Origin: Escherichia phage vB_EcoM_P8
Strand: one strand, 5' to 3'
Sequence record: PV390659.2
DNA length: 64,000 nt
Of the stretch, positions 3,215-53,801 are shown in pieces. Under the pieces are notes generated by a model, which searched no databases, was not told the origin of the DNA, and saw only the letters and a list, made by a program, of their open reading frames with translations. The position numbers and the translations under genes were made by a program. The first letter of the stretch is position 1, and the number at the start of each line of letters is the position of its first letter.

Positions 3215-4144
3215 ATGAAAACTCGTAAACATTATATTGATTATTTTGATAGTCTTATTACTAAACATCGTAATTATCAGATAGGACACAGAGCAGTAAT
3301 CAATAATATTCTTCGTGATTTTTTAGACTATATTGGATGGGAAAACCATATTTGTAAAGATACACAAAATGCGTATTCACATTCTCTTGGTTCTTTGCTA
3401 GAGTGGTTCAAACGTTCCCGATTACTATCTTCTGTGATAGCTCGTGATAACATTAAAAACTTTATGAAGCCGAGCTTTATTAAATCTGAGACATCTATAA
3501 CTGATTTGGTTGAATTTACTATTGTTAACGATGTTAAAAAGACCCATTTGGCTGATTGGTTATCTACCATTCCTGAAACTAAATTTGCTGATAAATTTGC
3601 TTGTCAATTCAATGACCAAGTGAATATGCTTTTTAAGCATGCTCGCAGACTATTTACCGCAGGCGATGACCGTACAAATACAGTTCATGTTAAGGATTGG
3701 GTTATTGCTGATGAAGTAACACACAAGCCAGGTGGTTCATCAGTATTAATTAATATCCAGGTTCCTTATTATTACTCACGTAATCTTGGCACCATGACAG
3801 CTAGAGAAATTAATAAGCACAACAAAACTATTCGTTCGTTGTCTTATAAACTCTGCACGATGGTGGAGATGATGGACGTAGTGGAAATGTATGACGAAAC
3901 CGAAGATAATGGTTCAATGTTATACAGCTCACGCATTCTAATTAAACTGAAGAATCCTAATACATATAAGCCAGTTGTAAAAGAACCTAAAGTAGAAAAG
4001 GTTGATAACCTGAGCGAAGAACGTGAATATCTCAATGCTCGTTTGATTGAAGTTGAAGCTCAGATTGCCGAACATACCAAATTGTTAAAAGCTCTTAATG
4101 CAAAAGCAAATGGTTTACGTAATGCTATTGAGGTACTGAAATGA
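3215..4144 (+). CDS. hypothetical protein, member D of four-paralog array, C-terminal coiled coil
   Basis: 309-aa ORF; shared N-terminal motif with member C; coiled-coil C-terminus. Confidence 0.65.
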   Translation: MKTRKHYIDYFDSLITKHRNYQIGHRAVINNILRDFLDYIGWENHICKDTQNAYSHSLGSLLEWFKRSRLLSSVIARDNIKNFMKPSFIKSETSITDLVEFTIVNDVKKTHLADWLSTIPETKFADKFACQFNDQVNMLFKHARRLFTAGDDRTNTVHVKDWVIADEVTHKPGGSSVLINIQVPYYYSRNLGTMTAREINKHNKTIRSLSYKLCTMVEMMDVVEMYDETEDNGSMLYSSRILIKLKNPNTYKPVVKEPKVEKVDNLSEEREYLNARLIEVEAQIAEHTKLLKALNAKANGLRNAIEVLK

Positions 4145-4458
4145 AAAAGCGCTTATTAGAAGATATTGCAGCTTCAAGTAATTCCAGTCTAATTAAAATT
4201 ATTATGGCTGGTGAAGAAGACGATCTAGAAATGCGTGGAAAGATTCATGGCGATGATGATCTAGACTTTAAACCTCCTGCTTGGGATGCCATTATGGTTA
4301 TGGTTGAACGCCGCGAAAGGGCTTCTAAGAATGTTCCGAACTGCCCAAAATGTGGTACTGAACAGGTTCAATTAATTCATTGGCAGACTAGTAATCTTCG
4401 TTATAAATGTCGTCATTGCAAACACCGATTTAACCGAGAAGAAAATGACCAAGCGTAA
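4141..4458 (+). CDS. small zinc-ribbon protein
   Basis: 105-aa ORF, ATGA stop-start overlap; C-terminal CPKCG..17..CRHC motif. Confidence 0.55.
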
Positions 4459-4687
4459 AGAATATATGGAGATTGCTGAAAAGGCAGTCCGTGAATTAGC
4501 AATAGCGTATTATAATGAACACGGTAAATTTCCTGATAGATACAGCGTGCTTAAATCAGCTTTAACTCGTTCATATAAAAATATGCTATCAGAAGTAAGT
4601 GATATTATATACAAACATAAAGAACAAACAGGTCAAAGTCTTGATTACGACGAGACTTTTAAACAAGTACTAGGAATTAAGGAATAA
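4445..4687 (+). CDS. hypothetical protein
   Basis: 80-aa ORF tightly packed upstream of nrdC. Confidence 0.5.
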
Positions 4688-4688
4688 T

Positions 4689-4952
4689 ATGTTTAAAGTA
4701 TATGGTTATGATAGCAACATCCACAAATGTGTGTATTGCGATAATGCAAAACGTCTTTTGACTGTGAAGAAACAGCCGTTTGAATTTATCAACATTATGC
4801 CGGAAAAAGGTGTTTTTGATGATGAGAAAATTGCTGAGCTTCTGACGAAACTAGGTCGTGATACTCAAATTGGCTTGACGATGCCTCAGGTATTTGCTCC
4901 TGATGGAAGTCATATTGGTGGATTTGACCAATTGCGGGAATACTTTAAATGA
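4689..4952 (+). CDS. nrdC: phage thioredoxin/glutaredoxin NrdC
   Basis: 87 aa, CVYC redox motif, sequence matches remembered T4 NrdC. Confidence 0.9.
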   Translation: MFKVYGYDSNIHKCVYCDNAKRLLTVKKQPFEFINIMPEKGVFDDEKIAELLTKLGRDTQIGLTMPQVFAPDGSHIGGFDQLREYFK

Positions 4953-6598: not shown

Positions 6599-8412
6599 CA
6601 ATTGAAAAAGAAATTGAAGGATTGATTCATAAAACTAATAAAGACCTTTTAAACGAGAATGCTAATAAAGATTCTCGTGTTTTTCCAACTCAACGGGACC
6701 TTATGGCTGGTATTGTGTCTAAACACATTGCCAAAAATATGGTCCCGTCTTTTATTATGAAAGCGCATGAAAGCGGAATTATCCATTTCCATGATATTGA
6801 TTATTCCCCTGCTCTTCCATTTACTAATTGCTGTTTAGTAGATTTAAAAGGAATGCTTGAGAACGGATTTAAGCTCGGTAATGCGCAGATTGAAACTCCT
6901 AAATCAATTGGCGTTGCTACTGCAATTATGGCACAAATTACTGCACAGGTTGCTTCTCATCAATATGGCGGAACGACTTTTGCGAATGTAGATAAAGTCC
7001 TTTCTCCTTATGTTAAACGCACCTATGCAAAACATATTGAGGATGCAGAAAAATGGCAAATCGCAGATGCATTGAATTATGCCCAATCTAAAACAGAAAA
7101 AGACGTATACGATGCATTCCAAGCTTACGAATATGAAGTAAATACTCTCTTTAGTTCAAATGGACAGACTCCTTTTGTAACAATTACATTTGGTACGGGA
7201 ACTGACTGGACTGAACGAATGATTCAGAAAGCAATTCTGAAAAATCGCATTAAAGGTCTTGGCCGTGACGGGATAACTCCTATTTTCCCTAAGCTTGTTA
7301 TGTTCGTTGAAGAAGGCGTTAATCTTTATAAAGACGATCCGAACTATGATATTAAACAGCTTGCTCTAGAGTGTGCAAGCAAAAGAATGTATCCTGACAT
7401 CATTTCGGCTAAGAACAATAAAGCTATCACCGGTTCATCTATTCCTGTTTCTCCAATGGGTTGTCGTAGTTTCTTGAGTGTATGGAAAGATTCGACTGGT
7501 AATGAAATTCTTGATGGACGCAATAATCTTGGCGTTGTAACACTGAATCTTCCTCGTATTGCGTTAGATTCTTATATTGGAACACAGTTCAATGAACAGA
7601 AATTTGCCGAATTGTTCAATGAACGAATGGATTTGTGTTTTGAAGCTTTGATGTGTAGAATTAGTTCATTAAAAGGAGTTAAAGCGACTGTTGCTCCTAT
7701 TCTTTACCAAGAAGGTGCATTCGGGGTTCGTCTTAAACCTGATGATGACATAATTGAGTTATTTAAAAATGGTAGAAGTTCAGTGTCCCTAGGATACATC
7801 GGTATTCACGAATTGAATATTCTTGTCGGTCGTGATATTGGACAGGAAATTTTAACTAAAATGAATGCTCGTCTTAAGCAGTGGACTGAAAGAACTGGTT
7901 TTGCTTTTAGCTTGTATTCTACACCTGCTGAAAACCTGTGCTATCGCTTCTGTAAACTTGATACCGAAAAATATGGAAGTGTAAAGGATGTTACTGATAA
8001 AGGATGGTACACTAATAGTTTCCACGTTTCAGTAGAAGAAAATATCACTCCGTTTGAAAAGATTTCTCGAGAAGCCCCATATCATTTCATTGCGACAGGT
8101 GGTCACATTTCTTATGTTGAACTTCCTGATATGAAAAATAACCTAAAAGGTCTTGAGGCTGTATGGGATTATGCTGCACAACATTTAGATTATTTTGGTG
8201 TTAATATGCCAGTAGATAAATGTTTTACATGTGGAAGTACCCATGAAATGACTCCAACCGAGAACGGATTTGTTTGTTCTATTTGTGGAGAAACTGATCC
8301 TAAAAAGATGAACACAATAAGAAGAACTTGTGGTTATTTGGGAAATCCGAATGAACGCGGATTTAATCTCGGCAAAAATAAAGAAATCATGCATAGGGTT
8401 AAACACCAATGA
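6595..8412 (+). CDS. nrdD: anaerobic ribonucleoside-triphosphate reductase NrdD, uninterrupted
   Basis: 605-aa continuous ORF with C-terminal CxxC..CxxC glycyl-radical region; no intron-sized interruption. Confidence 0.95.
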   Translation: MTIEKEIEGLIHKTNKDLLNENANKDSRVFPTQRDLMAGIVSKHIAKNMVPSFIMKAHESGIIHFHDIDYSPALPFTNCCLVDLKGMLENGFKLGNAQIETPKSIGVATAIMAQITAQVASHQYGGTTFANVDKVLSPYVKRTYAKHIEDAEKWQIADALNYAQSKTEKDVYDAFQAYEYEVNTLFSSNGQTPFVTITFGTGTDWTERMIQKAILKNRIKGLGRDGITPIFPKLVMFVEEGVNLYKDDPNYDIKQLALECASKRMYPDIISAKNNKAITGSSIPVSPMGCRSFLSVWKDSTGNEILDGRNNLGVVTLNLPRIALDSYIGTQFNEQKFAELFNERMDLCFEALMCRISSLKGVKATVAPILYQEGAFGVRLKPDDDIIELFKNGRSSVSLGYIGIHELNILVGRDIGQEILTKMNARLKQWTERTGFAFSLYSTPAENLCYRFCKLDTEKYGSVKDVTDKGWYTNSFHVSVEENITPFEKISREAPYHFIATGGHISYVELPDMKNNLKGLEAVWDYAAQHLDYFGVNMPVDKCFTCGSTHEMTPTENGFVCSICGETDPKKMNTIRRTCGYLGNPNERGFNLGKNKEIMHRVKHQ

Positions 8413-9517: not shown

Positions 9518-9615
9518 GACGGGCCCTCTGGGCCTTTCTTTCTCGCATTCTGTATATTACCATTCTAAGCTATCGTTCCCTTCTTATCGTTCCCTAAAAT
9601 AATTTTCACAAAGTT

Positions 9616-9645
9616 GTTTACAGGAAGTTCAAACTGTGGTATTAT
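9616..9645 (+). promoter_or_regulatory. T4-type early promoter
   Basis: gtttac 9616-9621, tattat 9640-9645, 18 bp spacer. Confidence 0.55.
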
Positions 9646-9675
9646 TAACATGTGAATTGCCTTTGAGGATTTGAT

Positions 9676-9852
9676 ATGGTTGATAAAGAGATTAAAAAGG
9701 ATCAGTATTATCGTGTTAACGGACATATTGTTATTGTTACAGCAGTAGATGATCTAGATGTTCATTATACTATACTTAAATGGAACAAACACATGATTTG
9801 TGATCGTGCTGTATTTAGTTCAGTTGCTAAGGAAATTAAACTCCATGGGTAA
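9676..9852 (+). CDS. hypothetical small protein (58 aa)
   Basis: ATG after GAGGA RBS downstream of promoter; below ORF-track size cutoff. Confidence 0.35.
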   Translation: MVDKEIKKDQYYRVNGHIVIVTAVDDLDVHYTILKWNKHMICDRAVFSSVAKEIKLHG

Positions 9853-12913: not shown

Positions 12914-14116
12914 ATGAAAGTATGCATTTTTATGGCTCGAGGTCTTGAAGGTTGTGGCGTAACTAAATTTTCTCTTGAGCAACGTGATTGGTTTATTAAA
13001 AATGGTCATGAAGTAACTTTGGTTTATGCTAAAGATAAATCATTTACTCGTAATTGCGCGCATGATTATAAATCATTTTCAATTCCGGTTTTATTGGCAA
13101 AAGAATACGATAAAACCCTTAAGCTGGTAAATGATTGTGATATTCTAATTATCAATTCAGTTCCTGCTACTTCAGTAGAAGAAGACACCATTAATAACTA
13201 TAAAAAAATTATTGATAACATTAAACCTTCGGTTCGTGTTGTAGTTTACCAGCATGACCATTCTTCTCTTTCTTTACGCCGAAATTTGGGATTAGAAGAA
13301 ACTGTTCGTCGAGCTGATGTTATTTTTAGCCATTCTGATAATGGTGATTTTAATAAAGTTCTGATGAAAGAATGGTATCCAGAAACAGTTTCTCTGTTTG
13401 ATGATATTGAAGAAGCACCGACCGTATATAACTTTCAGCCTCCTATGGATATTGCGAAGGTTCGATCAACCTACTGGAAAGATGTTTCTGAAATTAACAT
13501 GAATATCAACCGTTGGATTGGTCGTACTACTACATGGAAAGGCTTTTATCAGATGTTTGATTTTCATGAAAAACATCTTAAACCTGCAGGACTAAGTACT
13601 ATTATGGAAGGTCTGGAACGTTCTCCAGCTTTCATTCCTATTAAAGAAAAGGGAATTCCATACGAGTATTATCGTCTTCATCAAGTAGACCAAATTAAAA
13701 TTGCTCCTAATTTGCCAACGCAAATTCTTGACCGTTATGTAAATAGTGAAATGCTTGAACGCATGAGTAAATCCGGATTTGGTTATCAGCTGAGTAAATT
13801 AGATAAAAAATATCTACAACGTTCTTTAGAATATACTCATCTAGAGCTTGGTGCATGCGGAACAATTCCAGTATTTTGGAAATCTACTGGCGAAAATTTA
13901 AAATTTCGTGTTGATAATACTCCGTTAATTTCTCATGATAGCGGTATCGTTTGGTTTGATGAAAATGACATGGAATCAACATTTGAACGTATTAAAGAAC
14001 TGTCATCTGACCGAGCTCTTTATGACCGCGAACGCGAAAAAGCTTATGAATTTTTGTATCAGCATCAAGATTCAAGCTTCTGCTTTAAAGAACAATTTGA
14101 CATTATTACAAAATAA
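12914..14116 (+). CDS. a-gt: DNA alpha-glucosyltransferase
   Basis: 400 aa, matches remembered T4 alpha-gt. Confidence 0.85.
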   Translation: MKVCIFMARGLEGCGVTKFSLEQRDWFIKNGHEVTLVYAKDKSFTRNCAHDYKSFSIPVLLAKEYDKTLKLVNDCDILIINSVPATSVEEDTINNYKKIIDNIKPSVRVVVYQHDHSSLSLRRNLGLEETVRRADVIFSHSDNGDFNKVLMKEWYPETVSLFDDIEEAPTVYNFQPPMDIAKVRSTYWKDVSEINMNINRWIGRTTTWKGFYQMFDFHEKHLKPAGLSTIMEGLERSPAFIPIKEKGIPYEYYRLHQVDQIKIAPNLPTQILDRYVNSEMLERMSKSGFGYQLSKLDKKYLQRSLEYTHLELGACGTIPVFWKSTGENLKFRVDNTPLISHDSGIVWFDENDMESTFERIKELSSDRALYDREREKAYEFLYQHQDSSFCFKEQFDIITK

Positions 14117-14133
14117 AGGGCTTCGGCCCTTTA
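14115..14133 (+). terminator. terminator hairpin AAAGGGC-UUCG-GCCCUUU
   Basis: perfect stem, UUCG loop. Confidence 0.65.
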
Positions 14134-14157
14134 GCTTTATACGGAGTTTGATATAAT
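14133..14157 (+). promoter_or_regulatory. possible middle promoter (Mot-like box AGCTTTA, TATAAT)
   Basis: agcttta 14133-14139, 12 bp spacer, tataat 14152-14157; same module recurs at 46166-46190. Confidence 0.4.
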
Positions 14158-19006: not shown

Positions 19007-19693
19007 ATGAAACTGTCTAAAGATACTACTGCTCTGCTTAAAAATTTCGCTACTATTAACTCTGGTATTATGCTTAAATCTGGTCAATTTATTATGACTC
19101 GCGCGGTTAATGGTACAACTTATGCAGAAGCAAATATTTCTGACACTATTGATTTTGATGTAGCGATTTACGATTTGAACGGTTTTCTCGGTATTCTGTC
19201 TCTAGTTAATGACGATGCAGAAATTTCCCAGTCAGAAGATGGAAATATTAAAATTGCTGATGCCCGTTCAACAATTTTTTGGCCAGCAGCTGATCCGAGT
19301 ACAGTAGTTGCTCCTAATAAACCAATTCCATTTCCGGTAGCATCTGTTGTTACTGAAATTAAAGCTGAAGACCTTCAACAGTTGTTGCGTGTATCTCGCG
19401 GTCTGCAGATTGATACAATTGCTATCACAGTAAAAGAAGGTAAAATCGTAATTAACGGTTTTAATAAAGTAGAAGATTCTGCTTTGACCCGTGTTAAATA
19501 TTCTTTGACTCTTGGTGATTATGATGGTGAAAATACATTTAATTTCATTATCAATATGGCAAATATGAAAATGCAACCAGGAAATTATAAACTTCTGCTC
19601 TGGGCAAAAGGTAAACAAGGTGCTGCTAAATTTGAAGGTGAACACGCGAATTATGTAGTAGCTCTTGAAGCTGATTCTACCCACGACTTTTAA
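19007..19693 (+). CDS. 45: sliding clamp gp45
   Basis: 228 aa, matches remembered T4 gp45. Confidence 0.95.
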   Translation: MKLSKDTTALLKNFATINSGIMLKSGQFIMTRAVNGTTYAEANISDTIDFDVAIYDLNGFLGILSLVNDDAEISQSEDGNIKIADARSTIFWPAADPSTVVAPNKPIPFPVASVVTEIKAEDLQQLLRVSRGLQIDTIAITVKEGKIVINGFNKVEDSALTRVKYSLTLGDYDGENTFNFIINMANMKMQPGNYKLLLWAKGKQGAAKFEGEHANYVVALEADSTHDF

Positions 19694-19694
19694 T

Positions 19695-19712
19695 AAAGGG
19701 CTTCGGCCCTTT
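19695..19712 (+). terminator. terminator hairpin AAAGGGC-UUCG-GCCCUUU
   Basis: perfect stem and UUCG loop directly after gene 45 stop. Confidence 0.65.
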
Positions 19713-19744
19713 ATAATTTACACTAAAACTTGAATGAGGAAATT

Positions 19745-21717: not shown

Positions 21718-24414
21718 ATGAAAGAATTTTATATCTCTATCGAAACAGTCGGAAATAACATTGTTGAGCGTTACATTGATGAAAACGGAAAGGAACGTAC
21801 TCGTGAAGTAGAATATCTTCCGACTATGTTTAGGCATTGTAAGGAAGAGTCAAAATACAAAGACATTTATGGTAAAAATTGCGCTCCTCAAAAATTTCCA
21901 TCAATGAAAGATGCACGAGACTGGATGAAGCGAATGGAAGACATCGGTCTCGAAGCTCTCGGTATGAACGATTTTAAACTCACTTATATCAGTGATACAT
22001 ATGGTTCAGAAATTGTTTATGACCGAAAATTTGTTCGTGTAGCTAACTGTGACATTGAGGTTACTGGCGATAAATTTCCTGACCCAATGAAAGCAGAATA
22101 TGAAATTGATGCTATCACTCATTATGATTCAATTGACGACCGTTTTTACGTTTTTGATTTGTTGAATTCAATGTATGGTTCAGTATCAAAATGGGATGCA
22201 AAGTTAGCTGCTAAGCTTGACTGTGAAGGTGGTGATGAAGTTCCTCAAGAAATTCTTGACCGAGTAATTTATATGCCATTTGATAATGAGCGTGATATGC
22301 TCATGGAATATATTAATCTCTGGGAACAGAAACGACCTGCTATTTTTACCGGTTGGAATATTGAGGGATTTGACGTTCCGTATATCATGAATCGTGTTAA
22401 AATGGTTCTCGGCGAACGTAGTATGAAACGCTTCTCTCCAATCGGTCGAGTAAAATCTAAATTAATTCAAAATATGTACGGTAGCAAAGAAATTTATTCT
22501 ATTGATGGCGTATCTATTCTTGATTATTTAGATTTGTATAAGAAATTCGCATTTACTAATTTGCCGTCATTTTCTTTGGAATCAGTTGCTCAACATGAAA
22601 CCAAAAAAGGTAAATTACCATATGATGGTCCTATTAATAAACTTCGTGAGACTAATCATCAACGATACATTAGTTATAACATCATTGACGTAGAATCAGT
22701 TCAAGCAATTGATAAAATTCGTGGGTTTATCGATCTAGTTTTAAGTATGTCCTATTACGCTAAAATGCCTTTTTCTGGTGTAATGAGTCCTATTAAAACT
22801 TGGGATGCTATTATTTTTAACTCGTTGAAAAGTGAACATAAGGTTATTCCTCAACAAGGTTCACACGTTAAACAGAGTTTTCCGGGTGCATTTGTGTTTG
22901 AACCTAAACCGATTGCTCGTCGATACATTATGAGTTTTGACTTGACGTCTCTGTATCCTAGCATTATTCGTCAGGTTAACATTAGTCCTGAGACTATTCG
23001 TGGACAGTTTAAAGTTCATCCAATTCATGAATATATCGCAGGAACAGCTCCTAAGCCAAGTGATGAGTATTCATGTTCTCCGAATGGATGGATGTATGAT
23101 AAGCATCAAGAAGGTATCATTCCAAAGGAAATCGCTAAAGTATTTTTCCAGCGTAAATATTGGAAAAAGAAAATGTTCGCCGAAGAAATGAATGCCGAAG
23201 CTATTAAAAAGATTATTATGAAAGGTGCAGGGTCTTGTTCAACTAAACCAGAAGTTGAACGATATGTTAAGTTTAATGATGATTTCTTAAACGAATTATC
23301 GAATTACACCGAATCTGTTCTTAATAGTCTGATCGAAGAGTGCGAAAAAGCAGCTACACTTGCTAATACAAATCAGCTGAACCGTAAAATTCTTATTAAC
23401 AGTCTTTATGGTGCTCTTGGTAATATTCATTTCCGTTACTATGATTTGCGAAATGCTACTGCTATCACAATTTTTGGTCAAGTTGGTATTCAGTGGATTG
23501 CTCGTAAAATTAATGAATACCTGAATAAGGTGTGTGGAACTAATGGTGAAGATTTCATCGCAGCAGGTGATACTGATTCGGTATATGTTTGTGTAGATAA
23601 AGTAATTGAAAAAGTAGGTCTTGACCGCTTTAAAGAACAAAATGATTTAGTTGAATTCATGAATCAGTTTGGTAAGAAAAAGATGGAACCTATGATTGAT
23701 GTTGCATATCGTGAGTTATGTGATTATATGAATAACCGCGAGCATCTGATGCATATGGACCGTGAAGCTATTTCTTGTCCTCCGCTTGGTTCAAAGGGTG
23801 TCGGTGGATTTTGGAAAGCGAAAAAACGTTATGCTCTGAACGTTTATGATATGGAAGATAAGCGATTTGCTGAACCACATCTAAAAATCATGGGTATGGA
23901 AACTCAGCAGAGTTCAACACCAAAAGCAGTGCAAGAAGCTCTCGAAGAAAGTATTCGTCGTATTCTTCAGGAAGGTGAAGAGTCTGTCCAAGAATACTAT
24001 AAGAACTTTGAGAAAGAATATCGTCAACTTGACTATAAAGTTATTGCTGAAGTAAAAACCGCGAATGATATAGCGAAATATGATGATAAAGGTTGGCCAG
24101 GATTTAAATGTCCGTTCCACATTCGTGGGGTGCTAACTTATCGTCGAGCTGTTAGTGGTTTAGGTGTAGCTCCAATTTTGGATGGAAATAAGGTAATGGT
24201 TCTTCCATTACGTGAAGGAAATCCATTTGGTGACAAGTGCATTGCTTGGCCATCAGGCACAGAACTTCCAAAAGAAATTCGTTCTGATGTACTGTCTTGG
24301 ATTGACTACTCAACTTTGTTCCAAAAATCGTTTGTTAAACCGCTTGCGGGTATGTGTGAATCGGCAGGTATGGACTATGAGGAAAAAGCTTCGTTAGACT
24401 TCCTGTTTGGCTGA
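21718..24414 (+). CDS. 43: DNA polymerase gp43 (family B)
   Basis: 898 aa, matches remembered T4 gp43 including exo and pol motifs. Confidence 0.95.
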   Translation: MKEFYISIETVGNNIVERYIDENGKERTREVEYLPTMFRHCKEESKYKDIYGKNCAPQKFPSMKDARDWMKRMEDIGLEALGMNDFKLTYISDTYGSEIVYDRKFVRVANCDIEVTGDKFPDPMKAEYEIDAITHYDSIDDRFYVFDLLNSMYGSVSKWDAKLAAKLDCEGGDEVPQEILDRVIYMPFDNERDMLMEYINLWEQKRPAIFTGWNIEGFDVPYIMNRVKMVLGERSMKRFSPIGRVKSKLIQNMYGSKEIYSIDGVSILDYLDLYKKFAFTNLPSFSLESVAQHETKKGKLPYDGPINKLRETNHQRYISYNIIDVESVQAIDKIRGFIDLVLSMSYYAKMPFSGVMSPIKTWDAIIFNSLKSEHKVIPQQGSHVKQSFPGAFVFEPKPIARRYIMSFDLTSLYPSIIRQVNISPETIRGQFKVHPIHEYIAGTAPKPSDEYSCSPNGWMYDKHQEGIIPKEIAKVFFQRKYWKKKMFAEEMNAEAIKKIIMKGAGSCSTKPEVERYVKFNDDFLNELSNYTESVLNSLIEECEKAATLANTNQLNRKILINSLYGALGNIHFRYYDLRNATAITIFGQVGIQWIARKINEYLNKVCGTNGEDFIAAGDTDSVYVCVDKVIEKVGLDRFKEQNDLVEFMNQFGKKKMEPMIDVAYRELCDYMNNREHLMHMDREAISCPPLGSKGVGGFWKAKKRYALNVYDMEDKRFAEPHLKIMGMETQQSSTPKAVQEALEESIRRILQEGEESVQEYYKNFEKEYRQLDYKVIAEVKTANDIAKYDDKGWPGFKCPFHIRGVLTYRRAVSGLGVAPILDGNKVMVLPLREGNPFGDKCIAWPSGTELPKEIRSDVLSWIDYSTLFQKSFVKPLAGMCESAGMDYEEKASLDFLFG

Positions 24415-24427
24415 TAGAATAAATCTA

Positions 24428-24448
24428 GGGACCTCCGGGTCCCTTTTT
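24428..24448 (+). terminator. intrinsic terminator (GGGACC-UCCG-GGUCCC + T5)
   Basis: perfect 6-bp GC stem and T run after gene 43. Confidence 0.7.
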
Positions 24449-24531
24449 CATACAAGTAATATAAATCTATACTTAGGAAAAATAGATGATTCTGGACCTC
24501 TGGAATTCATTAAAAAATTTTTCACAAAATG

Positions 24532-24561
24532 GTTTACAAGACTGTTCCTCTGTGGTACTAT
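24532..24561 (+). promoter_or_regulatory. T4-type early promoter with A/T-rich upstream element
   Basis: gtttac 24532-24537, tactat 24556-24561; member of conserved cassette family (also 52529, 53045, 56171). Confidence 0.6.
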
Positions 24562-24595
24562 ACAACTATCAACCAATACAGATTTGGAGAATGAA

Positions 24596-24976
24596 ATGAA
24601 AATCGCTATTTTAGTTATTGCATTGGGTCTTACTGGTTGTGTAGCTCAAGGACCAGTAGTAAATCAGTCTGATGCAGGAAAAATTGTAAACTGTTCAAGC
24701 AAATTTTATAATCCTAACGTCAAGTGTTATAAAGAAGCTCCAAAACAGACAGTAGAAGAAATGCAGGCGAATTTTGACGAAGCTATTCGTCCAGATGAAT
24801 CTGCTCAAGCATATCGTAATTCAGATGTGATTACGCGTGAAGAAAAAATTGAAAACTACTGCGCTGAACTTTGGGCTAATTGGGCTAATAATTACCAATG
24901 GCGTACTGGTAAAAATGCTCCGATGGAGTATGTAGTAAATTCTTACAATTCATGCGTAAAAAATTTGACTAAGTGA
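24596..24976 (+). CDS. predicted lipoprotein (signal peptide with lipobox LTGC)
   Basis: ATG 24596 after GGAG; MKIAILVIALGLTGC; track ORF 24407..24976 is an N-terminal over-extension across the promoter. Confidence 0.55.
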   Translation: MKIAILVIALGLTGCVAQGPVVNQSDAGKIVNCSSKFYNPNVKCYKEAPKQTVEEMQANFDEAIRPDESAQAYRNSDVITREEKIENYCAELWANWANNYQWRTGKNAPMEYVVNSYNSCVKNLTK

Positions 24977-24982
24977 GGAAAC

Positions 24983-25234
24983 ATGGAAACTTTAGTAGCA
25001 GGTTCAATTTTTATGGTTTTAGTTTCAGGCGTGTTGGCTATTATTATATACATGCTTCCGTGGTTCATCGCCTTGATGCGTGGGTCAAAATCGACAGTAG
25101 GAATCTTTTTCACATCTTTACTGTTTAACTGGTCAATTATTGGTTGGTTTATTACATTTATTTGGTCAATTGCGGGTGAAACTAAAAAGTCAACACAGCC
25201 AAATCAAGTAATTATCATCAGAGAGAAGGAATGA
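24983..25234 (+). CDS. imm: immunity to superinfection membrane protein Imm
   Basis: 83 aa, two TM segments, matches remembered T4 Imm. Confidence 0.85.
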   Translation: METLVAGSIFMVLVSGVLAIIIYMLPWFIALMRGSKSTVGIFFTSLLFNWSIIGWFITFIWSIAGETKKSTQPNQVIIIREKE

Positions 25235-25380
25235 AAAGCAAAATTATAACAGTGTTGCTTTTAATCTTGATGATTATAATAAGTATATACTATAGTGTAA
25301 CGGTTCCTCTTATGATTCCAACTATTATTTTAGGTTGGGGTTTATTACTGTTACAAGTTAAATATGAATGTATCAATTGA
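25231..25380 (+). CDS. small membrane protein (49 aa)
   Basis: ATGA overlap with imm stop; entirely hydrophobic. Confidence 0.35.
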   Translation: MKSKIITVLLLILMIIISIYYSVTVPLMIPTIILGWGLLLLQVKYECIN

Positions 25381-25387
25381 GGTTTAA

Positions 25388-26128
25388 ATGATTAATGACT
25401 CTATGACAGTTGAAGAAATTCGTCTTCATTTGGGAATTGCATTAAAGGAAAAAGATTTTGTAATTGACAAAACCGGGGTTAAAACTATTGAAATTATTGG
25501 TGCATCATTTGTAGCAGATGAACCTTTTATTTTTGGTGCTCTTAATGATGAATACATTCAGCGTGAACTTGAATGGTATAAGTCTCAAAGTCTGTGTGTT
25601 AAAGATATTCCAGGTGAAACACCAAAGATTTGGCAGCAGGTAGCATCTTCTAAAGGCGAAATTAACTCGAATTATGGTTGGGCCATCTGGTCAGAAGATA
25701 ACTATGCTCAGTATGACATGTGTTTAGCTGAACTTGGTCAAAATCCTGATTCTCGACGTGGTATCATGATTTATACTCGTCCATCCATGCAGTTTGACTA
25801 CAATAAAGATGGTATGTCAGATTTCATGTGTACGAATACAGTACAGTACCTGATTCGTGATAAGAAAGTCAATGCAGTGGTTAATATGCGCTCAAATGAC
25901 GTAGTCTTCGGATTCCGTAATGATTATGCATGGCAAAAATACGTACTAGATAAATTAGTATCTGATTTGAATGCAGGTGATTCAACTCGTCAGTATAAAG
26001 CAGGTTCCATTATATGGAATGTCGGAAGCCTTCATGTGTATTCCCGTCATTTTTATTTGGTTGACCATTGGTGGAAAACTGGCGAAACTCATATTGCGAA
26101 AAAAGATTATAACGGTGAGTGGAAATGA
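25388..26128 (+). CDS. 42: dCMP hydroxymethylase gp42
   Basis: 246 aa, thymidylate-synthase-like. Confidence 0.9.
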   Translation: MINDSMTVEEIRLHLGIALKEKDFVIDKTGVKTIEIIGASFVADEPFIFGALNDEYIQRELEWYKSQSLCVKDIPGETPKIWQQVASSKGEINSNYGWAIWSEDNYAQYDMCLAELGQNPDSRRGIMIYTRPSMQFDYNKDGMSDFMCTNTVQYLIRDKKVNAVVNMRSNDVVFGFRNDYAWQKYVLDKLVSDLNAGDSTRQYKAGSIIWNVGSLHVYSRHFYLVDHWWKTGETHIAKKDYNGEWK

Positions 26129-26967
26129 TTCAATTCGTAATTCCAAGCTATCAGCGCGTAGGGGCAGTTTCTGCCCTTGATATGTTTCCGACTGATTATG
26201 AACCTCATATTGTAGTACGTGAACACGAAGAAAAAGCTTATTATGACGCTTACGGGTCTAGAGCTAAAATTATAACTATTCCTGATGATGTTAATGGAAT
26301 TGCTGGTACTCGTAAAGCAATTACTGATATGTATGCAGGTCAACGAATCTGGATGATCGATGATGATACTACTATTCGTATGAGTTCAATGCGAAAGAAA
26401 GATGATCGTCGCTGTGTAGATAAAATTAATCAGTTAACCCGTGAACAGTTCTATGAATTGATTCAATACGTTGAAGATGCTATGGATTGCGGGTATTATC
26501 ATGGTCATGCTCGCCTACCAATTTTTAAAATTACTTCATCTTGGGGTAATTATCGTGAAAATTCATATGGATTCACGAATACATGGTATGACCTTGGAAA
26601 ACTTACGACAGAACAAATTGGGTATGGAAAAATTGATTTGTGCGAAGATATGTATGCATTTCTCAATTTAATTAATCAAGGTTATCCGCATTTGGCCTTG
26701 TTCAAATATCTGGTTGTATCTGGAAAAGCACAAGCTCCCGGTGGATGCAGCTCAATTCGTAGTAATTCAAAACATAATAGAGCTCTCGAGCAAATCAATA
26801 GAGAGTTTCCAGAGCAAACTCGTTGGAAAACTTCTAATATTGAAAAACGAAAATCATTAGGTGAAGAAGACGAGCCATTAAAGGTTCTTCGCATGTGTGT
26901 TTCGCGCAAAGAAAAATCAGAAGCGTTTCATAAGTTTAATGCTATTCATCCAATAGCAGTTGATTAA
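26119..26967 (+). CDS. DNA glycosyltransferase (GT-A-like, DxD), probable beta-glucosyl-HMC-alpha-glucosyltransferase of T2/T6 type
   Basis: 280-282 aa in the slot held by 351-aa beta-gt in T4; IDDDTT motif. Confidence 0.55.
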   Translation: MEMIQFVIPSYQRVGAVSALDMFPTDYEPHIVVREHEEKAYYDAYGSRAKIITIPDDVNGIAGTRKAITDMYAGQRIWMIDDDTTIRMSSMRKKDDRRCVDKINQLTREQFYELIQYVEDAMDCGYYHGHARLPIFKITSSWGNYRENSYGFTNTWYDLGKLTTEQIGYGKIDLCEDMYAFLNLINQGYPHLALFKYLVVSGKAQAPGGCSSIRSNSKHNRALEQINREFPEQTRWKTSNIEKRKSLGEEDEPLKVLRMCVSRKEKSEAFHKFNAIHPIAVD

Positions 26968-27044
26968 TGCCTAAATTTATTGTGTTATAATTACCCTATC
27001 TTTAACCAGTGAGGAAAATATAATGATGCCTATGGAAAAAATGA

Positions 27045-28226
27045 ATGTCTATTGCAGATTTAAAATCCCGTTTGATTAAAGCTTCCACTTCTAAAATGAC
27101 TGCTGAACTGACTACATCTAAATTCTTTAATGAAAAGGATGTAATCCGTACAAAAATCCCAATGCTTAATATCGCTATTTCCGGTGCGATTGATGGTGGA
27201 ATGCAGTCTGGTTTAACTATTTTTGCAGGTCCTTCTAAACACTTTAAATCAAATATGTCTTTGACTATGGTTGCGGCGTATTTGAACAAATATCCTGATG
27301 CGGTTTGTTTATTCTATGATAGCGAATTTGGTATCACTCCAGCTTATTTGCGATCCATGGGAGTCGACCCGGAACGAGTAATTCATACACCAATTCAGTC
27401 AGTTGAACAGCTGAAAATTGATATGGTGAATCAGCTTGAAGCCATTGAGCGCGGTGAAAAGGTTATTGTATTCATCGACTCAATCGGTAATATGGCTTCT
27501 AAGAAAGAAACGGAAGATGCCTTGAATGAAAAATCTGTGGCAGATATGACTCGTGCTAAATCGCTGAAGTCATTATTCCGTATTGTTACTCCTTATTTTA
27601 GCATTAAAAATATTCCATGTGTTGCGGTTAACCATACAATTGAAACAATTGAAATGTTTAGTAAAACCGTGATGACAGGTGGTACAGGCGTAATGTATTC
27701 AGCTGATACTGTATTCATTATCGGTAAGCGTCAGATTAAAGATGGTTCTGATCTTCAGGGGTATCAATTTGTTCTAAATGTAGAAAAATCTCGTACCGTC
27801 AAAGAAAAAAGTAAATTCTTTATTGATGTTAAATTTGACGGTGGTATCGATCCTTATTCTGGATTGTTAGATATGGCTCTTGAATTAGGATTTGTAGTAA
27901 AACCTAAAAATGGTTGGTATGCTCGTGAATTTCTTGACGAAGAAACCGGCGAGATGATTCGCGAAGAAAAATCTTGGCGTGCAAAAGATACCAACTGTAC
28001 TACATTCTGGGGTCCTTTATTTAAGCATCAACCATTCCGAGATGCTATTAAACGCGCTTATCAGTTAGGTGCTATTGATAGTAATGAAATTGTTGAAGCT
28101 GAAGTTGATGAATTGATTAACTCAAAGGTTGAAAAATTTAAATCTCCAGAAAGTAAAAGTAAATCAGCAGCTGATTTAGAAACTGACCTAGAACAGTTAA
28201 GTGATATGGAAGAATTTAATGAATAA
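27045..28226 (+). CDS. uvsX: RecA-like recombinase UvsX
   Basis: 393 aa, matches remembered T4 UvsX. Confidence 0.95.
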   Translation: MSIADLKSRLIKASTSKMTAELTTSKFFNEKDVIRTKIPMLNIAISGAIDGGMQSGLTIFAGPSKHFKSNMSLTMVAAYLNKYPDAVCLFYDSEFGITPAYLRSMGVDPERVIHTPIQSVEQLKIDMVNQLEAIERGEKVIVFIDSIGNMASKKETEDALNEKSVADMTRAKSLKSLFRIVTPYFSIKNIPCVAVNHTIETIEMFSKTVMTGGTGVMYSADTVFIIGKRQIKDGSDLQGYQFVLNVEKSRTVKEKSKFFIDVKFDGGIDPYSGLLDMALELGFVVKPKNGWYAREFLDEETGEMIREEKSWRAKDTNCTTFWGPLFKHQPFRDAIKRAYQLGAIDSNEIVEAEVDELINSKVEKFKSPESKSKSAADLETDLEQLSDMEEFNE

Positions 28227-28566: not shown

Positions 28567-29994
28567 GTGGTAGAAATTATTCTTTCTCATCTCATATTTG
28601 ATCAAGCTTATTTTTCAAAAGTTTGGCCATATATGGATTCAGAATATTTTGAAAGTGGTCCAGCTAAAAATACATTCAAATTAATTAAATCTCATGTCAA
28701 TGAGTACCATAGCGTTCCATCTATTAATGCGTTAAATGTTGCATTAGAAAATAGTTCATTTACTGAAACAGAATATTCTGGTGTAAAAACACTTATTTCA
28801 AAACTGGCCGATTCTCCGGAAGACCATAGCTGGTTAGTAAAAGAAACAGAAAAATATGTTCAGCAAAGGGCGATGTTTAACGCCACATCTAAAATAATTG
28901 AAATTCAAACCAATGCTGAGCTTCCTCCGGAAAAACGCAATAAGAAAATGCCAGATGTAGGTGCTATTCCTGACATCATGCGCCAAGCATTATCAATTTC
29001 ATTTGATAGTTACGTTGGTCATGATTGGATGGATGACTACGAAGCACGTTGGCTATCTTATATGAATAAAGCTCGTAAGGTTCCATTTAAACTCAAAATT
29101 CTAAATAAAATTACTAAAGGCGGAGCTGAGACTGGAACACTGAACGTTTTAATGGCTGGTGTTAACGTTGGTAAGTCATTAGGTCTGTGTTCATTGGCAG
29201 CAGATTATTTACAGCTCGGTCATAATGTTCTTTACATTTCAATGGAAATGGCAGAAGAAGTCTGTGCTAAACGTATTGATGCTAATATGCTTGACGTTTC
29301 TCTTGATGACATTGATGATGGGCATATTTCTTACGCTGAATATAAAGGAAAAATGGAAAAATGGCGTGAGAAATCTACTCTTGGACGTTTAATCGTTAAA
29401 CAGTATCCTACTGGTGGAGCAGACGCTAATACATTTCGTTCTCTTTTGAACGAATTGAAGCTCAAGAAGAATTTTGTTCCAACAATCATTATTGTCGACT
29501 ATCTAGGTATTTGTAAATCTTGTCGCATCAGAGTTTATTCAGAAAATAGTTACACAACTGTTAAAGCTATCGCAGAGGAATTGCGTGCTCTGGCTGTTGA
29601 AACCGAAACTGTTCTTTGGACTGCAGCGCAGGTTGGTAAGCAAGCTTGGGATTCTTCTGATGTTAACATGAGCGATATTGCAGAATCTGCCGGTCTTCCA
29701 GCAACAGCCGATTTTATGCTTGCGGTCATTGAAACCGAGGAGTTAGCAGCTGCTGAACAACAACTAATTAAGCAAATCAAATCACGATATGGTGATAAGA
29801 ATAAATGGAATAAGTTTTTGATGGGTGTTCAAAAAGGAAATCAGAAATGGGTAGAAATTGAACAAGATTCTACTCCAACTGAAGTGAACGAAGTAGCAGG
29901 TTCACAACAGATACAAGCTGAGCAGAATCGCTATCAAAGAAATGAATCTACTCGAGCCCAGTTAGATGCTTTGGCAAATGAATTAAAATTTTAG
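28567..29994 (+). CDS. 41: replicative helicase gp41 (DnaB-like)
   Basis: 475 aa, GTG start, Walker A GVNVGKS. Confidence 0.95.
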   Translation: MVEIILSHLIFDQAYFSKVWPYMDSEYFESGPAKNTFKLIKSHVNEYHSVPSINALNVALENSSFTETEYSGVKTLISKLADSPEDHSWLVKETEKYVQQRAMFNATSKIIEIQTNAELPPEKRNKKMPDVGAIPDIMRQALSISFDSYVGHDWMDDYEARWLSYMNKARKVPFKLKILNKITKGGAETGTLNVLMAGVNVGKSLGLCSLAADYLQLGHNVLYISMEMAEEVCAKRIDANMLDVSLDDIDDGHISYAEYKGKMEKWREKSTLGRLIVKQYPTGGADANTFRSLLNELKLKKNFVPTIIIVDYLGICKSCRIRVYSENSYTTVKAIAEELRALAVETETVLWTAAQVGKQAWDSSDVNMSDIAESAGLPATADFMLAVIETEELAAAEQQLIKQIKSRYGDKNKWNKFLMGVQKGNQKWVEIEQDSTPTEVNEVAGSQQIQAEQNRYQRNESTRAQLDALANELKF

Positions 29995-30023
29995 TTTACA
30001 AGCTGACAAGACTATGGTATAGT
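29994..30023 (+). promoter_or_regulatory. T4-type early promoter
   Basis: gtttac 29994-29999, tatagt 30018-30023. Confidence 0.55.
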
Positions 30024-30052
30024 AGTCTTGTTGGTTAAATGAGGAGATTGTT

Positions 30053-30458: not shown

Positions 30459-30481
30459 TTATTGATGCTAGTAAAATAGTA

Positions 30482-30511
30482 GTTTACAAGCTGATAGAGT
30501 TGTGTTATAGT
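30482..30511 (+). promoter_or_regulatory. T4-type early promoter
   Basis: gtttac 30482-30487, tatagt 30506-30511; near copy of promoter at 29994. Confidence 0.55.
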
Positions 30512-30542
30512 AATTCTATCAGCTAATCGCGGAGAAAAGAAA

Positions 30543-30785
30543 ATGATGCTAGTTAATAGAGAATATCAGTTTAAATCAGAAGAAGATTTGGAAAAATTCG
30601 CAAGTGGTTGTGAACTGAATAGACGCACAGCTAAAGTCATAGGATTAAAACCCTTTACAGTTCTAGATTGTGAAGTTTCTAAATTCCGCAGAGGGTGTTC
30701 TATTAGCGGTCATGCTCTGGTTGATGGGAACACATTTTTCTTTGTTTTTAGCGTCAGAGAACTTTTATTGATTAACGAACTCTAG
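30543..30785 (+). CDS. hypothetical protein (61.x region)
   Basis: 80-aa ORF. Confidence 0.5.
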   Translation: MMLVNREYQFKSEEDLEKFASGCELNRRTAKVIGLKPFTVLDCEVSKFRRGCSISGHALVDGNTFFFVFSVRELLLINEL

Positions 30786-30854
30786 GAAATAAAATAGTTT
30801 ACTTTTGTTGGAAATTGAGATACTATATAAACATAAACTACTGAGGAGATTATC

Positions 30855-33169: not shown

Positions 33170-33218
33170 GCGTCGTCCTCCTTTAAATTAAATATTTATC
33201 GCAAATTTTACAAAATTT

Positions 33219-33248
33219 GTTTACTTTCTCAGCTTGCTGTGGTATTAT
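33219..33248 (+). promoter_or_regulatory. T4-type early promoter driving 186-aa ORF and dam
   Basis: gtttac 33219-33224, tattat 33243-33248; GAGGA RBS before ATG 33274. Confidence 0.6.
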
Positions 33249-33273
33249 AAAATAAACTGCTGAGGATAATATA

Positions 33274-34613
<1,340 letters not shown>

Positions 34614-44309: not shown

Positions 44310-44406
44310 AGTTTAAAATTTTTTCATAAAACTATATACATCAGTAGTTGATTATGGTACTATATCAATATCAACTACTGATACAGAAAATAACTTGGAG
44401 AATAAA

Positions 44407-44676
44407 ATGGAAAACTTAATTATCATCGAACAATCTTTCAACGATTATGGTATGGCTTATGGTTATCGTGCGATAATGGAAGATTCTCGTGGATGTGTTA
44501 TCGATATTGCTGAATGTAAAGATTTACTGCAGCTTTTGAAGATTGTTCGCAAAAATTGGGATTGTGAAAACATTAAAGTTCGTGTTGTAACGGAAGAAGA
44601 AACTGTTTTTCATGATGTAAAATTTGCCAAAGGTGCTGCTACTCTTCTGAAACGCATCACTCCAATGTTCAATTAA
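44407..44676 (+). CDS. hypothetical protein
   Basis: ORF track 44395..44676; ATG 44407. Confidence 0.45.
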   Translation: MENLIIIEQSFNDYGMAYGYRAIMEDSRGCVIDIAECKDLLQLLKIVRKNWDCENIKVRVVTEEETVFHDVKFAKGAATLLKRITPMFN

Positions 44677-45887: not shown

Positions 45888-46148
45888 ATGAAATATGTTA
45901 ATCGTTCTATCGCGGCATTAGTATTAGCAGTATCTTTAGTAGGATGTACTGATGCTGATAATGCAACCAAAGTTTTGTCTTCAAGTGGGTTTACTAATAT
46001 TGAAATCACTGGATACAATTGGTTTGGTTGCTCTGAAAATGATTTCCAACACACTGGATTTCGTGCTATTGGACCTACTGGGCAGAAAGTAGAAGGAACC
46101 GTGTGTTCTGGTCTATTCTTCAAGGATTCGACTATCCGTTTTAAATAA
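45888..46148 (+). CDS. predicted lipoprotein (lipobox LVGC)
   Basis: ORF track 45876..46148; ATG 45888; MKYVNRSIAALVLAVSLVGC. Confidence 0.5.
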   Translation: MKYVNRSIAALVLAVSLVGCTDADNATKVLSSSGFTNIEITGYNWFGCSENDFQHTGFRAIGPTGQKVEGTVCSGLFFKDSTIRFK

Positions 46149-46165
46149 AAGGCCTTCGGGCCTTT
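46148..46165 (+). terminator. terminator hairpin AAAGGCC-UUCG-GGCCUUU
   Basis: perfect stem, UUCG loop. Confidence 0.65.
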
Positions 46166-46190
46166 AGCTTTATGATTACCGGAGTATAAT
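46166..46190 (+). promoter_or_regulatory. possible middle promoter for gene 39
   Basis: agcttta 46166-46172, 12 bp spacer, tataat 46185-46190. Confidence 0.4.
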
Positions 46191-48035: not shown

Positions 48036-48064
48036 TTTACTTTACCACAAGGATGTGGTATAAT
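48035..48064 (+). promoter_or_regulatory. T4-type early promoter
   Basis: gtttac 48035-48040, tataat 48059-48064; identical 30 bp to 2103-2132. Confidence 0.6.
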
Positions 48065-51459: not shown

Positions 51460-51654
51460 ATGTTAGGTTATCAAGCACGAGTAAAAGAAGAATACGATCA
51501 ATTAATGCTCAAAATTAATGCACTGAGCAAATTTTTAGAAAGCACAAAGTTTCTAACGATTAATGAAGTTGAACAAGAATTACTGCTTTCACAGTTCATC
51601 TCAATGAAATCTTACGCAGATTGTTTAGAAAAAAGAATTGCACAATTCAAATAA
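51460..51654 (+). CDS. hypothetical protein (64 aa)
   Basis: ORF bracketed by two hairpins. Confidence 0.45.
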   Translation: MLGYQARVKEEYDQLMLKINALSKFLESTKFLTINEVEQELLLSQFISMKSYADCLEKRIAQFK

Positions 51655-51692
51655 AATAAGGTGCTTCGGCCCTTTTGTTTTAAGGAAAAAAT

Positions 51693-52022
51693 ATGATTTA
51701 TTGTATGAATATCGGTGATTCCGACATAAAAGAGATTAAACTGCACGGAAATCATCACGCTAATATTGTGTACTGCAATAAATTTGAGTTTGGTCACGAA
51801 AAACTTGGGTTTCTTTACTGTAATGATGTTATAGTCATGGATAAAAAGGAACTCGATGATCTCGACCATGAGTCTTTAGATGAAAATGATCGAATTTATT
51901 ATGGCACTCTTAAAATATATAACGCTTATCTCAGCGGTAAAAAGGAAAGTCTAAATGCAGAAAACGAATCCGGGTTTACAGAGACTATTTCAGATTCCGA
52001 CATTTACCCTATCGAACAATGA
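51693..52022 (+). CDS. hypothetical protein
   Basis: 109-aa ORF; 3' end overlaps next ORF by 68 nt, so one of the two starts may be wrong. Confidence 0.35.
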   Translation: MIYCMNIGDSDIKEIKLHGNHHANIVYCNKFEFGHEKLGFLYCNDVIVMDKKELDDLDHESLDENDRIYYGTLKIYNAYLSGKKESLNAENESGFTETISDSDIYPIEQ

Positions 52023-52512: not shown

Positions 52513-52528
52513 AAATTTTCACAAAACG

Positions 52529-52558
52529 GTTTACATACCACAAGGACTGTGGTACTAT
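52529..52558 (+). promoter_or_regulatory. T4-type early promoter (cassette family)
   Basis: gtttac 52529-52534, tactat 52553-52558. Confidence 0.6.
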
Positions 52559-52585
52559 ACAACTATCAGCTACGGAGGAGTAAAA

Positions 52586-53742: not shown

Positions 53743-53801
53743 TTTATCGGCCGTGTGTATTCATGCGGCCTTGGAGTAGAAAATAATTAGAGGAAAATAA
53801 C

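Follow-up and report, generated by a model that had tools for sequence, protein, structure and literature searches.

Seventeen co-oriented sequence cassettes are dispersed along a 64,000-nucleotide stretch of Escherichia phage vB_EcoM_P8 (PV390659.2; the whole of this stretch is referred to as the window), and they are very probably sigma-70 early promoters (Pe) coupled to a RegB-type leader, which resemble one another through shared ancestry and recombination in the manner of the promoter-early stem-loop (PeSL) model. Each cassette would open with an UP element and a -35 element (GTTTACA), which a 17-bp spacer would set apart from an extended -10 element (TGnTAYTAT); a start region, (T)ATCAAC, would come next and lead through an unstructured leader of 20-40 nt to a RegB/S1-cleavable GGAG Shine-Dalgarno sequence and the first ORF. 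The A/T-rich UP element would offer a contact for the C-terminal domains of RNA polymerase alpha, the promoters would be fired by host RNA polymerase immediately upon infection, and a RegB cut at GGAG would later shut down the early messages. That whole blocks (spacer, start region and leader) are nearly identical, beyond what polymerase contact needs, is probably due to common ancestry and repeated homologous recombination among the dispersed cassettes, which under the PeSL model would swap modules and bring small ORFs into and out of variable regions.

By sequence comparison, the phage is a T4-like Tequatrovirus. Escherichia phage vB_EcoM_BMB16 matches the window at 100% identity over the two stretches compared (24000-28000 and 52000-57000), which are also 93-97% identical to several hundred Tequatrovirus genomes. 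The window shares ~95% identity with T4 and is collinear with the T4 early region, spanning the T4 map from ~50 kb down past the map origin to ~156 kb, and its + strand is equivalent to the minus strand of T4, along which early transcription runs. Naming each site by the first base of its -35 element, site 24532 sits between gene 43 and imm.1, sites 52529 and 53035 fall within the denB-ndd cluster of tiny ORFs, and site 56171 is directly 5' of motA. The GenBank record of the phage contains coding sequences only, and promoter features are absent from the T4 GenBank and RefSeq records, so that there were no annotated promoter names to transfer.

The recurrence proposed in the initial annotation at 24505-24575, 52505-52570 and 56150-56215 was borne out by the pattern TTTTCACAAAAYGGTTTACA-N12-TGTGGTACTATACAACTATCA (53 bases, of which 41 are specified), which has three exact matches, each on the + strand (24519-24571, 52516-52568 and 56158-56210), against a chance expectation of 0 (no occurrence in 100 dinucleotide shuffles). 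The variant placed at 53033-53080 was recovered as 53017-53076, which is 83% identical over 60 nt to the copy at 24514-24573 and carries the same 14-nt spacer between the -35 and -10 elements with no differences. A blind repeat search of the whole window returned the cassettes as its largest dispersed repeat family (D1), with the 53017-53076 variant among the members, and extended the family beyond the copies first flagged to 9598-9657 and 44316-44375. Scanning with a position-weight matrix covering -48 to -6 identified 17 sites in the window, without exception on the + strand; in 65 kb of T4 the matrix gave 14 sites, and every one of these was on the early-transcription strand. At 17/17 window sites an ATG is found 20-45 nt downstream of the predicted start. 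Orthologous sites are present in T4 at 27080, 167086, 166807, 163673 (motA) and 6630, the motA promoter being identical base-for-base in the two phages, while sites 30482 and 33219 have no T4 counterpart. A generic sigma-70 consensus scan was uninformative in the AT-rich DNA of the window, with 97, 100 and 77 hits as compared to 89, 87 and 80 in shuffles, indicating that specificity resides in the extended T4-type consensus.

In the numbering used here, the G of GTTTAC is -36 and +1 therefore lies at G+36, the starts being placed by sigma-70 geometry; it is thus from geometry and the literature that we infer both the start sites and the polymerase contacts. A literature search for T4 start-site RNA-seq returned nothing relevant. 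The consensus extends from -60 to ~+20 and comprises the UP element, GTTTACA, TGnTAYTAT, the discriminator and the start sequence ATCAAC, with T followed by ATCAACTACTGAGGAG as the family consensus at the start region. GTTTAC (-36 to -31) is present at 16/17 sites, the exception being 44334 (ATATAC); the 17-bp spacer occurs at 17/17; an extended -10 of the form TGn plus TAnnnT is found at all sites save 30797, which is without TG; and an A/T-rich upstream region precedes every one of the 17, that of the focal cassette (site 24532) being one which we take to resemble the E. coli UP consensus. The initial annotation had claimed that conservation reaches past the hexamers into the A/T upstream element and the leader, and the information content of the 17-site alignment agrees, since every segment between -60 and +20 significantly exceeds the composition null and conservation is not limited to the -35 and -10 hexamers. 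The values are 5.1 bits for the distal UP (null 1.9), 6.3 for the proximal UP (null 1.4), 11.6 over 7 columns for GTTTACA, 14.2 over 11 columns for the extended -10, 2.2 for the discriminator (null 0.8), 5.6 for +1 to +10 (null 1.4) and 3.6 for +11 to +20 (null 1.4). The spacer is overall the least conserved segment, at 0.27 bits per column. The start-region signal persists when the five ATCAAC sites are left out (3.7 bits versus 2.0 +/- 0.5, p = 0.0025), and within this five-member subfamily the start region reaches 1.66 bits per column, as strong as the -35 and -10 elements. Together, the weight-matrix scan and the conservation of the segments uphold the assignment of the blocks as early-promoter cassettes (Table 1).

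Table 1. Positions of the early-promoter cassettes and associated elements in the window.
Feature	Position	Strand	Details
Terminator-like intrinsic hairpin, AGGGACCTCCGGGTCCCT plus T run	24427-24449	+	7 pairs, 5 GC, then TTTTCA; gene 43 end; 88 nt 5' of the focal cassette's -35 element
Focal cassette, UP element, A/T-rich, CATTAAAAAATTTTTCACAAAATG	24508-24531 (-60 to -37)	+	Based on sequence and information content
Focal cassette, -35 element GTTTACA	24532-24538 (-36 to -30)	+	T4-type early-promoter signature
Focal cassette, extended -10 element TGGTACTAT	24553-24561	+	TGn plus hexamer TACTAT, 17-bp spacer
Focal cassette, discriminator ACAACT, then start and leader	24562-24595	+	Predicted start A24568 (sigma-70 geometry); 28-nt leader AUCAACCAAUACAGAUUUGGAGAAUGAA, predicted unstructured (z +0.43); RegB-type site GGAGAATGAAA at 24586-24596; imm.1 start at 24596
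Second cassette	52505-52588	+	-35 at 52529-52535; extended -10 at 52550-52558; predicted start 52565; leader AUCAGCUACGGAGGAGUAAAA, after which a small ORF of the hyperplastic denB-ndd region starts at ATG 52586
Variant cassette	53011-53095	+	-35 at 53035-53041; extended -10 TGGTATTAT at 53056-53064; predicted start 53071; ATG 53093
motA early promoter cassette	56120-56244	+	Terminator 56120-56141; UP 56147-56170; -35 at 56171-56177; extended -10 at 56192-56200; predicted start 56207; 35-nt leader with GGAGATTAGAA at 56230-56240; motA start 56242
Fifth subfamily member, 3' of motB	44310-44409	+	Degenerate -35 ATATACA at 44334-44340; extended -10 at 44355-44363; predicted start 44370; perfect RegB consensus GGAGAATAAAA at 44396-44406; 13-bp inverted repeat 44340-44352/44370-44382 around the -10 box
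Further family member	9592-9678	+	-35 at 9616
Other sites (G of GTTTAC)	2103, 29994, 30482, 30797, 33219, 35563, 37671, 39006, 42633, 48035, 58636	+	Weight-matrix scan

Stem-loops of some description are found at ~12/17 sites and are varied in kind: 4 sites have an upstream terminator, ~5 a hairpin around the -10 box and 3 a spacer-internal hairpin, the others having none. A canonical terminator hairpin lies close upstream at 4/17 sites only (9521, 24427, 35527 and 56120), so that the 'SL' of PeSL takes a different form from site to site, or is absent. In several cassettes the hairpin encloses the -10 box, one arm belonging to the spacer and the other to the start region or leader. Such hairpins were predicted at 29994 (MFE -18.9 kcal/mol, z -5.2), 30482 (-18.0 kcal/mol, z -4.0), 42633 (-21.1 kcal/mol, z -5.5), 44334 (-20.2 kcal/mol, z -5.7) and 53035 (-15.4 kcal/mol, z -2.7). 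These structures raise the alternative, possible though doubtful, that the key function of the hairpin-bearing cassettes is exercised at the RNA level, through a stem that would form only in read-through RNA, which would be masked, processed or attenuated, and that would leave RNA from the cassette's own start open. Consistent with this are the z-scores of -2.7 or below at all five sites and the stronger pairing of spacers with their own leaders than in cross-pairings (mean -10.2 versus -7.1 kcal/mol, permutation p = 1e-4). Cassette 53035 provides the clearest example, with a predicted pairing of a spacer arm (53046-53060) to a leader/Shine-Dalgarno arm (53075-53089; own duplex -23.8), a predicted unpaired probability of its Shine-Dalgarno sequence of 0.66 in own-start RNA but 0.00, that is fully paired, in read-through RNA, a degree of masking equalled by 0/16 swapped upstream regions, and an inner stem of 13 pairs retained in 8 variants. 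The changes in these variants, however, were four one-sided, wobble-compatible substitutions, with no double compensatory change among the 8, and covariation support for the hairpin was dropped. Masking also failed to hold for the family as a whole: the apparent drop in Shine-Dalgarno accessibility from 0.58 in own-start RNA to 0.37 in read-through RNA (Wilcoxon p = 0.0003) was not upheld, since equal-length upstream regions that had been swapped or shuffled gave 0.40 (p = 0.5-0.6 against the real 0.37), and under these controls 53035 alone stood out, with 2103 and 33219 marginal. Further, the three main flagged cassettes (24532, 52529 and 56171) are without a -10-enclosing hairpin, site 52529 having a weak spacer hairpin only (z -0.6), recombinant cassettes that break the pairing exist, and stem-loops overlapping promoter boxes have already been described in the PeSL work (PMC2839356). 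For the subset at 29994, 30482, 42633, 44334 and 53035, it is unlikely that the stem forms only in transcripts derived from upstream and there masks the ribosome-binding site, as modelled for 53035, or marks the RNA for processing or attenuation; under such a reading the G.U pairs would be functional only in sense RNA, and expression of the ORF would be tied to the firing of its own promoter. If true, these hairpins would be to early promoters what the switches of T4 e, soc, 49 and I-TevI are to late ones, and the 'SL' in PeSL would gain a functional reason.

The initial annotation had further proposed that the conserved leader forms a shared 5' UTR element such as a nuclease site, and this proposal is only partly right. 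At its Shine-Dalgarno end the leader does hold a predicted nuclease site, namely the known RegB/S1 target (GGAGRAYARAA), whereas most of the quoted leader (ACAACT followed by ATCA) is the discriminator plus +1 to +4, which lies within the RNA polymerase footprint and so belongs to the promoter and not to the UTR. The RegB/S1 consensus has been published for T4 early translation-initiation regions by Durand et al. 2006 (PMC1702504), with a further source on the target in Uzan & Miller 2010 (PMC3014915). Matches to its 11 positions number 10 at 24586, 10 at 56230, 9 at 52574, 8 at 53080 and 11 at 44396. In the annotated part of the window, a GGAG Shine-Dalgarno sequence is carried by 10/15 promoter-proximal genes versus 2/63 others (Fisher p = 1.4e-7). 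The motA RNA of T4 is a published RegB substrate (PMC1702504), and for the sites other than motA we infer RegB cleavage from the literature and from geometry. The 16-nt leader string TCAACTACTGATACAG did not prove to be a family-wide element: it has two copies in the window, 44371-44386 and 56208-56223, that is, it is common to the leaders of the site 3' of motB and of the motA promoter only, and the second copy reported at 44378-44393 does exist but was placed 7 nt off.

It would appear improbable that the shared leader's 5' portion (AUCAACUACUGAUACAG and related strings) acts as a dedicated RNA element, be it for nuclease entry, as a translational operator or for the binding of a protein, and is under selection for that role. 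Such a role would account for a subfamily start region conserved as highly as the -35 and -10 elements and for the recurrence of entire leaders before unrelated genes, but positions +1 to ~+10 are within the polymerase footprint, for which a constraint on promoter escape is the simpler reading. Leaders also vary less among orthologues than synonymous sites: between orthologues of the same leader type, variable sites number 8/196 in leaders, 63/350 at third codon positions and 26/98 in spacers, so that the leader is constrained and not merely hitch-hiking, a constraint that follows from its being mostly start region, ribosome-binding site and RegB site. A shared structured element was sought by folding the flagged and common-type leaders, which gave no structure signal (z -1.0 to +1.3) and predicted the common leader to be unstructured, and an Rfam search returned no family match anywhere in the window; conserved RNA structure in the common leader was rejected on these two grounds. 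A 4-bp AUCA/UGAU hairpin would be impossible in the commonest leader type, where it would have a 2-nt loop, and close relatives give one and the same gene different leaders (motA, the ORF after 52529, and imm.1). With regard to the nuclease, motA RNA cut to begin at GGAG is still cleaved by RegB/S1, although more slowly than the full RNA (PMC1702504), which may be taken in favour of a contribution from the 5' part; RegB cleavage was nevertheless reported to need no specific sequence 5' of GGAG, motA RNA having been explicitly assayed in the published deletions, and 26 cleaved T4 RegB sites show no conservation 5' of GGAG (PMC1702504).

The reading of the cassettes as early promoters with a RegB-type leader, alike through descent and recombination, draws on the mosaic way in which their modules are shared. 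Sites 24532 and 53035 have identical spacers (14/14), as do 2103 and 48035; the discriminator and start region (+1 to +6) are identical (12/12) at 24532 and 56171; and the leader from +7 to +20 is identical at 2103 and 30797 and matches at 13/14 positions between 44334 and 56171. To capture the diversity of cassettes, 53 copies were assembled, the sources being the window, T4 and some dozen metagenome contigs; the metagenome scan was chosen for that diversity, IMG/VR having given only 13 motA loci and 8 cassette hits. Among the 53 copies, 6 types of spacer and 10 of leader were distinguished, with 15 different genes downstream. A single 28-nt leader, AUCAACUGAUACGGAUUUGGAGARUAAA, stands before 7 different genes, one gene occurs with three different spacers, and for two pairs of spacer and leader types all four combinations were seen (a four-gamete pattern, from ~12 genomes only). 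Promoter 52529 is likewise found in T4, but with another leader and another ORF, and homology between the window and T4 breaks at 52576, inside the leader of that cassette. Overall, 4/17 window-versus-T4 homology breaks end within a cassette, while cassettes make up 3% of the window (p = 0.017); two of these four breaks involve cassette-plus-ORF units missing from T4 (30461-30796 and 33206-33746).

Cassette swaps were also observed in close relatives. In three contigs whose MotA is 99% identical to that of the window, the region upstream of motA is altered, with the motA.1 terminator fused to a cassette without UP and -35 elements; this half-deleted cassette is followed by a 74-aa ORF and then by a second, different cassette, and the ORF is flanked on both sides by a direct repeat of the leader sequence ATCAAATAAATGAACTGAAAC. 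Divergent phages (MotA 67-70% identical) have a common spacer and leader of their own, tccgctttaaact...ATACCAAACAAA, as predicted by within-lineage homogenisation. Pure convergence, in which each position was selected for contact with host (possibly Alt-modified) RNA polymerase and neither recombination nor common descent contributed, would fit the conservation of UP, -35 and extended -10 elements over all 17 sites and the known consensus of T4 early promoters outside the canonical elements (PMC2988021), but is highly improbable, since two pairs of sites are 14/14 identical in the segment that is otherwise the least conserved, the module alleles are few, discrete and found in reassorted combinations that convergent selection cannot produce, divergent phages hold lineage-specific spacers and leaders, and indel edges are located inside cassettes. 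Similarity in excess of what RNA polymerase or RegB requires is best explained by recombination among cassettes, although recombination and purifying selection are not cleanly separated.

The strings that were flagged are thus a correct re-discovery of elements that are already known, and their first interpretation is partly supported, the special leader element being supported only as the known RegB site. The early promoters of T4, their extended consensus, the recombining cassettes and the RegB site in the leader have all appeared in the literature between 1989 and 2014. The value for annotation consists of 17 early promoters with predicted starts for a phage record having only coding sequences, and one window illustrates both the reassortment of regulatory-cassette modules and the carriage of small ORFs. 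For the engineering and transcriptomics of T4-like phages, the near-exclusive occurrence of GGAG ribosome-binding sites at promoter-proximal genes may be of use, and the -10-enclosing hairpins in some cassettes constitute a second point for follow-up.

The early promoters of T4 are reportedly treated in Liebig & Ruger 1989, Wilkens & Ruger 1996 and Miller et al. 2003. They have been reviewed as combining UP, -35, TGn and -10 elements with additional consensus regions, and as active right after infection with unmodified host sigma-70 polymerase, phage protein synthesis being unnecessary (Hinton 2010, PMC2988021). The T4 Pe consensus includes GTTTAC at -36 to -31, an A-rich segment at -40 to -44 and a GT-rich flank of -12 (PMC1524935). 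The window sites share with these promoters GTTTAC, the 17-bp spacer, a GT-rich extended -10 and an A/T-rich UP element, as well as their orientation along early transcription and their position 5' of early ORFs, and nothing substantial sets them apart, apart from some cassettes with other spacer or leader modules than their T4 orthologues. As for the RegB/S1 target, the five subfamily leaders of the window resemble it in having a GGAG predicted to be single-stranded and an A-rich stretch (8-11/11 matches), but the site occupies the 3' end of the leader only and not the block first flagged. Translational control by a promoter lying inside a hairpin has been described for T4 e, soc, 49 and I-TevI (PMC3014915). 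Cassette 53035, and perhaps 2103 and 33219, is similar in that the 5' arm of a predicted Shine-Dalgarno-masking hairpin lies upstream of the start, masking at 53035 being predicted for read-through RNA only; in the known cases, however, the promoter is a late one and the control keeps early and late expression apart, whereas the promoter in the window is early and the effect is confined to single sites and not family-wide.

T4-type phages harbour mobile regulatory cassettes, the PeSL elements (Arbiol et al. 2010, PMC2839356; Comeau et al. 2014, PMC4122927), and these give the closest parallel to the family as a whole. They are conserved composites of ~100 bp that combine an AT-rich stretch, an early promoter and a stem-loop with a Shine-Dalgarno sequence and an ATG, and they recombine and shuffle ORFs (PMC2839356, PMC4122927), and excised mini-circles formed by recombination between flanking PeSL cassettes have been assayed by inverse PCR (PMC2839356). 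An ndd.4/.5 exchange between T4 and PST is figured in Comeau et al. 2014 (PMC4122927), and it concerns the very region that holds window sites 52529 and 53035. The window cassettes differ from PeSL elements in their stem-loop, which varies in kind by site and is absent at some; they resemble them in ending 3' in a Shine-Dalgarno sequence and start codon within a conserved interval of ~100 bp, in being concentrated in hyperplastic regions, and in edging the insertions, deletions and swaps of ORFs between close relatives.

Ribosome-binding sites with the sequence GGAG are nearly confined to genes that stand first behind an early promoter. Among the 78 annotated plus-strand gene starts between 14001 and 64000 of the window, they were found at 10 of the 15 first genes versus 2 of the 63 others (p = 1.4e-7).

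Several of the early-promoter cassettes, designated here by the first base of their -35 element, contain complementary sequences. One type of spacer pairs with the conserved extended -10 box as the hairpin TACCACA-AGGA-TGTGGTA (2111-2128, 48043-48060 and 52537-52555), and promoters 2103 and 48035 share 32 nt without a mismatch. In each of the tandem promoters near dmd, the spacer and positions +1 to +13 form the arms of a hairpin of 13-15 bp, with several G.U pairs in the stems and z-scores of -5.2 (29984-30047) and -4.0 (30472-30535). Transcripts that begin at promoter 53035 itself are predicted to leave the Shine-Dalgarno sequence open, and read-through RNA arriving from upstream to have it fully paired; the inner 13 pairs of this stem are kept across 8 variants, the only changes being wobble-compatible. 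The inverted repeat at promoter 44334, which lies downstream of motB and has a degenerate -35 element (ATATACA), is predicted to form a stem of -20.2 kcal/mol (z -5.7). Separately, terminator-like hairpins with a UUCG tetraloop occur as a dispersed family, some of them being terminator-like on either strand.

Positions in the window of promoter-associated features and dispersed hairpins
Feature	Position	Details
Cassette 33219 with ORF	33206-33746	No T4 counterpart
Two tandem early promoters	29984-30047 and 30472-30535	488 bp apart; upstream of dmd / of an extra ORF
13-bp perfect inverted repeat	44340-44352 / 44370-44382	Arms ATCAGTAGTTGAT / ATCAACTACTGAT; encloses -10 box of promoter 44334
89-aa ORF	44407-44676	Between motB and cef, directly 3' of promoter 44334
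Complementary arms, promoter 53035	53046-53060 with 53075-53089	Spacer with own leader, Shine-Dalgarno included
AAGGGCTTCGGCCCTT hairpins	14110-14140, 19690-19720, 46143-46173, 51653-51683; also 10465, 21631, 51418	

Cassette content and sequence were also compared across related phages. In three contigs (L006, 4560-5010, IMG/VR contig 2974787500; also L007 and L008) whose motA is 99% identical to that of the window, the region 5' of motA comprises a half-deleted cassette, which has lost its UP element and -35 so that the terminator is joined to the spacer, an extra 74-aa ORF flanked on either side by the leader segment ATCAAATAAATGAACTGAAAC, and a second cassette. Contigs L011-L015 (~3980-4935, 7000-8280), from phages with 67-70% identical MotA, carry a cassette sequence of their own, aaccGTTTACAtccgctttaaact...TATTacctcATACCAAACAAA. 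This sequence is common to several of their paralogous promoters, which suggests that cassettes are homogenised within each lineage.

With respect to T4, the break in homology at cassette 33219 begins 14 nt upstream of GTTTAC, and the second tandem unit near dmd (30461-30796) has no T4 copy. The 89-aa ORF persists in T4 only as a remnant, with a break in homology at 44414-44615, and the layout of inverted repeat and -10 box at promoter 44334 is the same at T4 ~6630.
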